A stretch of 5,601 nucleotides of DNA from IMG/VR virus record IMGVR_UViG_2606217110_000012, positions 1 to 5,601 of that record; one strand, written 5' to 3'. The stretch comes from a virus. Taxonomy: Duplodnaviria > Heunggongvirae > Uroviricota > Caudoviricetes. Of this stretch, positions 24 through 99 are shown piece by piece. Numbering within the stretch: the first letter of the stretch is position 1; each line of letters starts with the position of its first letter. The notes under the pieces are model-generated. The model had not been told where the DNA came from and made no database searches. It saw nothing but the letters and a program-made list of their open reading frames with translations. The position numbers were made by a program, and so were the translations under genes.

Positions 24-99
24 TGGTGGCCCTTGCTGGATTTGAACCAGCGACCTGGCGATTATGAGTCGCTCGCTCTCACCACTGAGCTAAAGGGCC
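24..99 (-). tRNA. tRNA-Ile2 type (anticodon CAU, lysidine-dependent AUA reader); tRNA-Met not fully excluded
   Basis: Reverse complement of 24..99 folds as a 76-nt cloverleaf: acceptor stem GGCCCTT/AAGGGCC, D-stem GCTC/GAGC, anticodon loop CTCATAA (anticodon CAT), T-stem GCTGG/CCAGC, encoded CCA 3' end. C4-G69, C5-G68 and C29-G41 pairs match known TilS determinants of tRNA-Ile2. Resembles enterobacterial ileX/ileY and phage-borne ileZ-type genes, but differs from my recollection of K-12 ileX at several positions. Confidence 0.85.

Follow-up and report, generated by a model that had tools for sequence, protein, structure and literature searches.

We analyze the transfer RNA (tRNA) gene located at positions 24..99, on the minus strand, of a 5,601-nucleotide (nt) stretch of viral DNA (positions 1 to 5,601 of IMG/VR record IMGVR_UViG_2606217110_000012), which is hereafter referred to as the window. 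The gene encodes a tRNA-Ile2 and corresponds to ileZ in a lambdoid Escherichia coli prophage that is not of the Shiga toxin (Stx) type, a feature that is already known and very common. The explanation that we favor, with a probability of roughly 0.85, is that this prophage-encoded tRNA is the first member of an Ile(CAU)-Arg(UCG)-Arg(UCU) array placed between the Q region and the lysis genes, and that the array contributes to the supply of tRNAs reading rare codons.

Identity of the tRNA gene

A single tRNA is predicted by ARAGORN in the window, with a length of 76 nt and anticodon CAT, at 24..99 on the minus strand. The Rfam tRNA model (RF00005) matches the same strand at 27..99 with 72.5 bits (E-value 5.5e-15) and is covered in full. 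The sequence can be arranged as the cloverleaf of a CAU-anticodon tRNA, with CAT at position 34 and every stem Watson-Crick paired save for 27:43, and the gene encodes its own CCA end. The minimum-free-energy fold differs from the cloverleaf, which is common for tRNA transcripts and was judged uninformative.

A gene with this anticodon might instead encode an elongator tRNA-Met, and tRNA-Met is the label that ARAGORN prints, because the program reads the anticodon alone. The same label is used in records ON470583 and LC567822 and in a paper on an Stx2 phage (PMC7946995), and the reason why anticodon-only callers confuse Ile2 with Met is given in the tRNAscan-SE 2.0 paper (PMC8450103). Comparison with the reference tRNA genes of E. 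coli K-12, taken from NC_000913.3, points in a different direction, with an identity of 92.1% to ileY and 89.5% to ileX, as against 67.5% to metT/U and 58.4% to the initiator gene metY. The acceptor stem is the same as that of ileY and contains both C4:G69 and C5:G68, where elongator tRNA-Met has U4:A69 and A5:U68. In PMC12514573 and PMC11947777, both of which cite Ikeuchi et al., these two pairs are given as the dominant identity elements of EcTilS.

The anticodon loop and the T arm are identical to those of the host genes ileX and ileY, and the six differences from ileY fall at position 20, positions 26/27, positions 43/44 and position 59. The identity elements of IleRS are said to have been established by Nureki et al. 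in 1994 as A73, A37, A38, U12:A23, C29:G41 and C4:G69, and all of them are found in the tRNA at 24..99. In all of the RefSeq genomes inspected, PGAP, whose models are isotype-specific, annotates this sequence as tRNA-Ile. The sequence comparison and the TilS identity pairs lead us to discard the tRNA-Met reading, which we regard as extremely improbable. The first-pass annotation had proposed a check of the TilS determinants and had called the gene tRNA-Ile2, which agrees with our results.

The tRNA-Met label accompanies this same tRNA in many phage records (e.g. ON470583, the LC5678xx series and PV189400), and PMC7946995 reports "one tRNA-Met" for it. In these phage records and in that paper, the label is an anticodon-only misnomer for tRNA-Ile2.

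An ileZ-type array in a lambdoid prophage

The tRNA at 24..99 is 100% identical to the gene annotated as ileZ in phage Stx2a_WGPS9 (AP012535), whose depositors place ileZ, argN and argO between Q and stx2A. The window itself contains only 16 nt of a second tRNA, and the remainder of the array was obtained from a 45.6-kilobase (kb) locus of E. coli E300082 (L001), comprising the stretch of a prophage that the whole window matches at 99.1% identity, together with 20-kb flanks. In this locus, the minus strand carries, in order, cro/replication genes, DUF968, RusA, Q, a kinase gene, a PP2C phosphatase gene, an open reading frame (ORF) of 65 amino acids and a methylase gene. These are followed by tRNA-Ile(CAU), tRNA-Arg(UCG) and tRNA-Arg(UCU), by two holins and an M15 endolysin, and then by HNH, terminase, portal, capsid and sheath/tube/baseplate genes.

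The first tRNA-Arg (tcg) occupies positions 19940..20016 of the E300082 locus, equivalent to positions -60..16 of the window, and tRNA-Arg (tct) comes next. The part that falls within the window is identical in the alignment, so that window positions 1..16 (minus strand) correspond to the 5' end of an argN-type tRNA-Arg(UCG) clipped by the window edge. The Ile(CAU)-Arg(UCG)-Arg(UCU) series on one strand is therefore complete in the E300082 locus, and its three anticodons are the same as those of ileZ, argN and argO in Stx2a_WGPS9. The first-pass annotation had likened the gene to the ileZ-type tRNAs that follow Q in Stx phages and had advised looking beyond position 1 for further tRNAs. Given the 100% identity to ileZ, the same three anticodons and the two Arg tRNAs that come next, the likeness is exact. 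The ileZ-argN-argO array was reportedly described with the first Stx phage genomes, by Schmidt et al. in 1997 and by Plunkett et al. in 1999.

All seven sizeable genes of the window lie on the minus strand, in the orientation of the tRNA, as had been pointed out in the first-pass annotation. The accompanying statement that the tRNA lies upstream of the phage genes is true in plus-strand coordinates only; in the order of transcription, the tRNA is located 3' of Q, the kinase/PP2C cassette and the methylase gene, and 5' of the lysis and late genes found beyond position 1. Q marks the start of the late region that holds the tRNA array, which in the E300082 locus is followed directly by the succession holin-holin-endolysin.

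The window locus thus shares with the Stx phage arrays (933W, Sp5, Stx2a_WGPS9) the mature Ile tRNA, the order of the genes and their position after Q and before the late or lysis genes, as well as an upstream region of about 50 nt containing the motif TTGCAG-N17-TATTAT. It differs from them in several respects. No stx genes are annotated in the 45.6-kb locus, and the holins come directly after the array, beginning about 190 base pairs (bp) past the third tRNA; for these reasons we consider the window to derive from a non-Stx lambdoid prophage with an ileZ-type array. The antiterminator belongs to the PF06323 family, and the kinase/PP2C genes, the 65-amino-acid ORF and the methylase gene are interposed between Q and the array, as compared with about 440 bp from Q to ileZ in Stx2a_WGPS9. 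The structural module of the prophage is of the contractile-tail type (sheath, tube, baseplate), unlike that of Stx phages. With respect to K-12 ileX and ileY, to which it is related by its acceptor stem (that of ileY), anticodon loop, T arm and the C4:G69 and C5:G68 pairs, the window gene is distinguished by its location in a prophage, by its association with Arg tRNA genes and by the frequent occurrence of more than one copy per genome.

Prophages often integrate into tRNA genes, as Stx phages do at argW and ssrA (PMC8065619), and the presence of a tRNA gene beside phage genes invites a comparison with such integration sites, in which the gene would be a host tRNA with the prophage inserted into its 3' end. 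In the E300082 locus, however, the tRNA occupies a central site between the Q/methylase genes and the holins of the prophage, with the integrase 18 kb away and the other prophage end more than 19 kb away. The terminal 25 nt at the tRNA 3' end, searched for with up to 3 mismatches, have no repeat in either the 45.6-kb locus or the window. A tRNA used as an attachment site would be expected at a prophage boundary, beside the integrase, with its 3' end directly repeated at the other boundary, and the locus presents neither feature. Moreover, the same tRNA is carried by isolated phage genomes and occurs up to 12 times in a single bacterial genome. On the basis of its internal position, its unrepeated 3' end and its presence in isolated phages we assign the tRNA to the phage late region, in agreement with the first-pass annotation, which had considered it more likely phage-encoded than an integration site, and the position of the gene and the absence of the repeat refute the attachment-site reading, whose probability we consider negligible. 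As a separate observation, positions 39944..45601 of the E300082 locus, beyond the integrase, contain remnants of another lambdoid element (ydfK, a recombinase, a tail fibre assembly gene, stfR and a Lom-family gene), and the prophage therefore sits beside or within an older defective prophage.

The tRNA and its flanks (window positions 1..148) were located in 3057 of 5426 complete E. coli genomes, at 7529 places and with at most 12 per genome, and in 282 phage records (matches over at least 80% of the length). The interval from Q/methylase to the holins accommodates a variety of arrays, including Ile-Arg(UCG)-Arg(UCU), Ile-gap-Arg(UCU), Ile-Lys(UUU), Ile-Lys-Thr-Gly, Ile-Arg-Thr-Gly and Thr-Gly. 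Wherever Ile2 is present it heads the array. The tRNA slot is therefore modular across E. coli prophages, as seen at positions 2632..2785 of locus L009 and around 1267..1600 of loci L010 to L015. In the Ile-Arg(UCU) arrays of L010 and L011, a gap of 100 nt (1424..1523) occupies the place of Arg(UCG) and starts with an argN-like 5' sequence carrying a substitution (CCGCCATTAGCTTATCA), which suggests that it is a decayed argN copy missed by tRNA callers.

The kinase/PP2C cassette and AUA codon usage

Directly upstream of the tRNA, and like the rest of the genes described here on the minus strand, lies an N6/N4 DNA methyltransferase gene (149..1198; Pfam PF01555, E-value 1.2e-44; PADLOC MTase_II, E-value 4.6e-161), followed in window coordinates by the 65-amino-acid ORF (1349..1546), which is a PGAP coding sequence in the E300082 locus and has no match in Pfam or PADLOC. 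The cassette proper comprises a PP2C-family phosphatase gene (1766..2509; Pfam PF13672, E-value 2.1e-14) and a Ser/Thr protein kinase gene (2506..3270; Pfam PF00069, E-value 2e-33), with guanine-cytosine (GC) fractions of 0.39 and 0.38, respectively, and with overlapping stop and start codons. Beyond the cassette are the late-gene antiterminator Q (3415..4104; Pfam PF06323 Phage_antiter_Q, E-value 5.1e-84, and PGAP in the E300082 locus), RusA (4101..4460; Pfam) and DUF968 (4473..5519; Pfam). The kinase matches the PADLOC defence kinases mad6, PD-T4-6 and Stk2 (E-values from 1e-40 to 1e-28) and the phosphatase has no PADLOC match. The pair may constitute a module for defence or superinfection exclusion, carried by the prophage as an insertion between Q and the late genes.

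The proximity of the tRNA to this AT-rich cassette led the first-pass annotation to propose that the tRNA may support expression of the cassette and of the late genes, citing AUA codons placed early in both cassette genes. These codons are indeed present, at codon 10 of the kinase (TAT at 3241..3243 in the plus strand) and at codon 5 of the phosphatase (TAT at 2495..2497), reading ATA on the minus strand. In its strong form, the proposal would have the tRNA specifically co-adapted with the neighboring cassette and present in order to allow its expression. The kinase gene contains 8 AUA and 10 AGA/AGG codons in 254 codons and the phosphatase gene 4 AUA codons in 247, and the density of AGA and AGG in the cassette reaches 30 per 1000 codons.

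Within the window, AUA is used at 24.0 per 1000 codons in the cassette and at 10.8 in the other five genes (p = 0.07), making up 31% and 23% of Ile codons, respectively (p = 0.47). When codons are counted over the 56 annotated genes of the E300082 locus, the difference between the cassette (24.0 per 1000; 30.8% of Ile codons) and the rest of the prophage (7.1 per 1000; 13.6%) becomes clear, with an odds ratio of 3.5 (p = 0.0005). The expectation that AUA would be more frequent in the cassette than in backbone genes consequently holds at the scale of the prophage, but the difference is not significant within the window. Early and accessory genes use AUA at 10.0 per 1000 codons (17.7% of Ile codons) and the late lysis and structural genes at 4.7 per 1000 (9.7%). 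Relative to the AUA share expected from third-position base composition, the observed share is 0.94 in the cassette, 0.53 in the early and accessory genes and 0.38 in the late genes.

The cassette therefore has the highest AUA density, but its AUA share is what its base composition predicts, which points to an absence of avoidance, such as would be expected of AT-rich foreign DNA acquired recently, rather than to adaptation to the tRNA. The placement of the early codons is likewise weak evidence, since the chance of at least one AUA occurring so early, given the AUA count of each gene, is 0.25 for the kinase and 0.06 for the phosphatase, and is thus not improbable. Moreover, the tRNA acts in trans in a host that already has ileX and ileY.

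In contrast with the 3057 genomes and 282 phage records that contain the tRNA, the cassette is found in just 50 of the 5426 genomes and is covered by no record of the phage collection. E. coli E24377A also has the Q-kinase-PP2C-ORF-methylase module, and its kinase and phosphatase carry identical protein accessions, but tRNA-Thr and tRNA-Gly come next and Ile2 is missing. Loci L010, L013 and L015 show the converse, with the 65-amino-acid ORF, the methylase gene and tRNA-Ile occurring together, joined at the methylase-tRNA-Ile junction seen in the window, in the absence of the cassette. Because each is found without the other, we interpret the tRNA and the cassette as independent insertions in the same interval. 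The difference in distribution and the E24377A counter-example lead us to reject a cassette-specific link, and we deem co-adaptation very unlikely. What survives of the original proposal is a general role in rare-codon tRNA supply, which is plausible.

Expression, function and significance of the array

A promoter-like element, TTGCAG-N17-TATTAT, was recognized upstream of the tRNA by reading of the sequence and by conservation (109..137, minus strand), with its -35 hexamer at 137..132 and its -10 hexamer at 114..109, so that it stops 9 nt short of the mature tRNA 5' end. Of 8 genomic contexts, 7 retain the hexamers as TTGCRR and TATTAT, the spacer and the more distal upstream sequence being variable, and in strain 2013C-4538 the element comes directly after a terminator-like hairpin. 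The number of promoter-like sites in the window as a whole (8) equals that in shuffled sequences (8.0). PMC7547250 reports that the tRNAs of the Sakai Stx2a phage are transcribed from a primary start. On the strength of this one published statement and of the conservation of the hexamers, the element is probably the tRNA promoter mapped in that phage. We infer that a promoter of its own serves the array, which may be expressed in lysogens.

Two terminator-like hairpins were also detected on the minus strand by the terminator scan. The first, at 3347..3368, is followed by a T-run (8-bp stem with 5 GC pairs, tail TTTGCTTAAC) and lies 47 nt 3' of the Q stop codon, a position that makes it a candidate terminator overridden by Q. 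The second (1345..1362) is found at the end of the 65-amino-acid ORF, before the methylase gene. No late promoter could be located with confidence in the window. Q-dependent read-through after induction would probably add to transcription of the array.

The mechanism that we propose would begin with a transcript initiated at the small promoter that travels with the array, and possibly also with Q-dependent read-through once the prophage is induced. Host RNase P and other processing enzymes would mature this transcript, after which host TilS would convert C34 into lysidine, and IleRS would then charge the tRNA with isoleucine. The phage tRNA-Ile2 would then enlarge the small host pool reading the rare AUA codon (ileX, ileY), with the Arg tRNAs doing likewise for CGA/CGG and AGA/AGG. 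For genes that draw on these codons more heavily than core genes, whether they belong to the prophage or are otherwise foreign, the added supply would ease a bottleneck in translation. One such AUA- and AGR-rich client would be the kinase/PP2C cassette, an incidental neighbor in the same insertion hot spot and not a co-adapted partner.

Codon usage in the prophage is in line with this proposal. With respect to a host control of 20 core genes (9063 codons), drawn from a single 30-kb region of low-expression genes in strain H15 and not from the prophage's own host, the prophage uses more AUA (7.8 vs 4.1 per 1000 codons), AGA (7.1 vs 1.4), AGG (5.1 vs 0.4), CGA (6.5 vs 4.0) and CGG (9.6 vs 3.6). 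In this host sample AUA accounts for 6.1% of Ile codons, with an observed to expected ratio of 0.24. Over-use of the codons decoded by the two Arg tRNAs extends across the whole prophage.

Several points weigh against this explanation, starting with the choice of host sample. The late genes, which lie immediately downstream of the tRNA, use AUA at the level of the host (4.7 vs 4.1 per 1000, p = 0.61), which weakens the earlier suggestion that the tRNA supports late-gene expression; the demand for AUA decoding comes from early and accessory genes, and not from the operon of the tRNA itself. The -35 hexamer of the promoter-like element is weak, and the element was missed by a consensus promoter scan because this hexamer matches at just 3 of 6 positions. 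Lastly, all phage copies examined present an A27:C43 mismatch (window positions 73 and 57) at the top of the anticodon stem, where host ileX and ileY have G27:U43. According to PMC11947777, anticodon-stem changes can impair EcTilS, and the departure from the host pair therefore casts a small doubt on the efficiency of TilS modification. In the copy of strain 317, a compensatory change from A31:U39 to G31:C39 keeps the anticodon stem paired.

The host-level AUA usage of the late genes and the difference from the host at A27:C43 also lend some credit to a different view of the array, in which its main purpose would be insurance, either against defences that target tRNAs or against depletion of host tRNAs on induction, rather than codon matching. 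There are descriptions of phage tRNAs resistant to anticodon nucleases, and the modular slot harbors tRNAs as varied as Lys(UUU), Thr(UGU), Gly(UCC), Arg(UCU), Arg(UCG) and Ile2. However, the anticodon loop of the phage tRNA is identical to that of ileX and ileY, so that nothing in it requires a counter-defence role, and we know of no nuclease that targets tRNA-Ile2. Furthermore, the array reads exactly the rarest codons of E. coli, all of which are over-used by the prophage, as is directly predicted by a codon-supply model. We therefore judge the insurance scenario to be unlikely and retain codon supply as the better explanation of the array.

As a discovery, the array carries little weight, for knowledge of it dates back to the first Stx phage genomes and most E. 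coli prophage complements contain it. Its analysis nonetheless has a bearing on how phage genomes are read. Phage tRNAs with a CAT anticodon are still widely mislabelled as tRNA-Met in both records and papers, and an ileZ-type array is not a marker of Stx phages. The presence of a tRNA beside an AT-rich moron should not be taken as co-adaptation, since both slots are independent modular sites of the Q-to-lysis interval. It might be that the phage-specific A27:C43 pair tunes TilS modification or tRNA stability. A broader possibility, which is doubtful, is that the array, equipped with a conserved promoter of its own, is constitutively expressed in lysogens and boosts the supply of tRNAs for AUA, AGA/AGG and CGA/CGG in more than half of E. 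coli strains, many of which would carry it in multiple copies. If this were true, prophages would operate as trans-acting boosters of AT-rich acquired genes, including virulence genes and defence cassettes akin to the kinase/PP2C pair.

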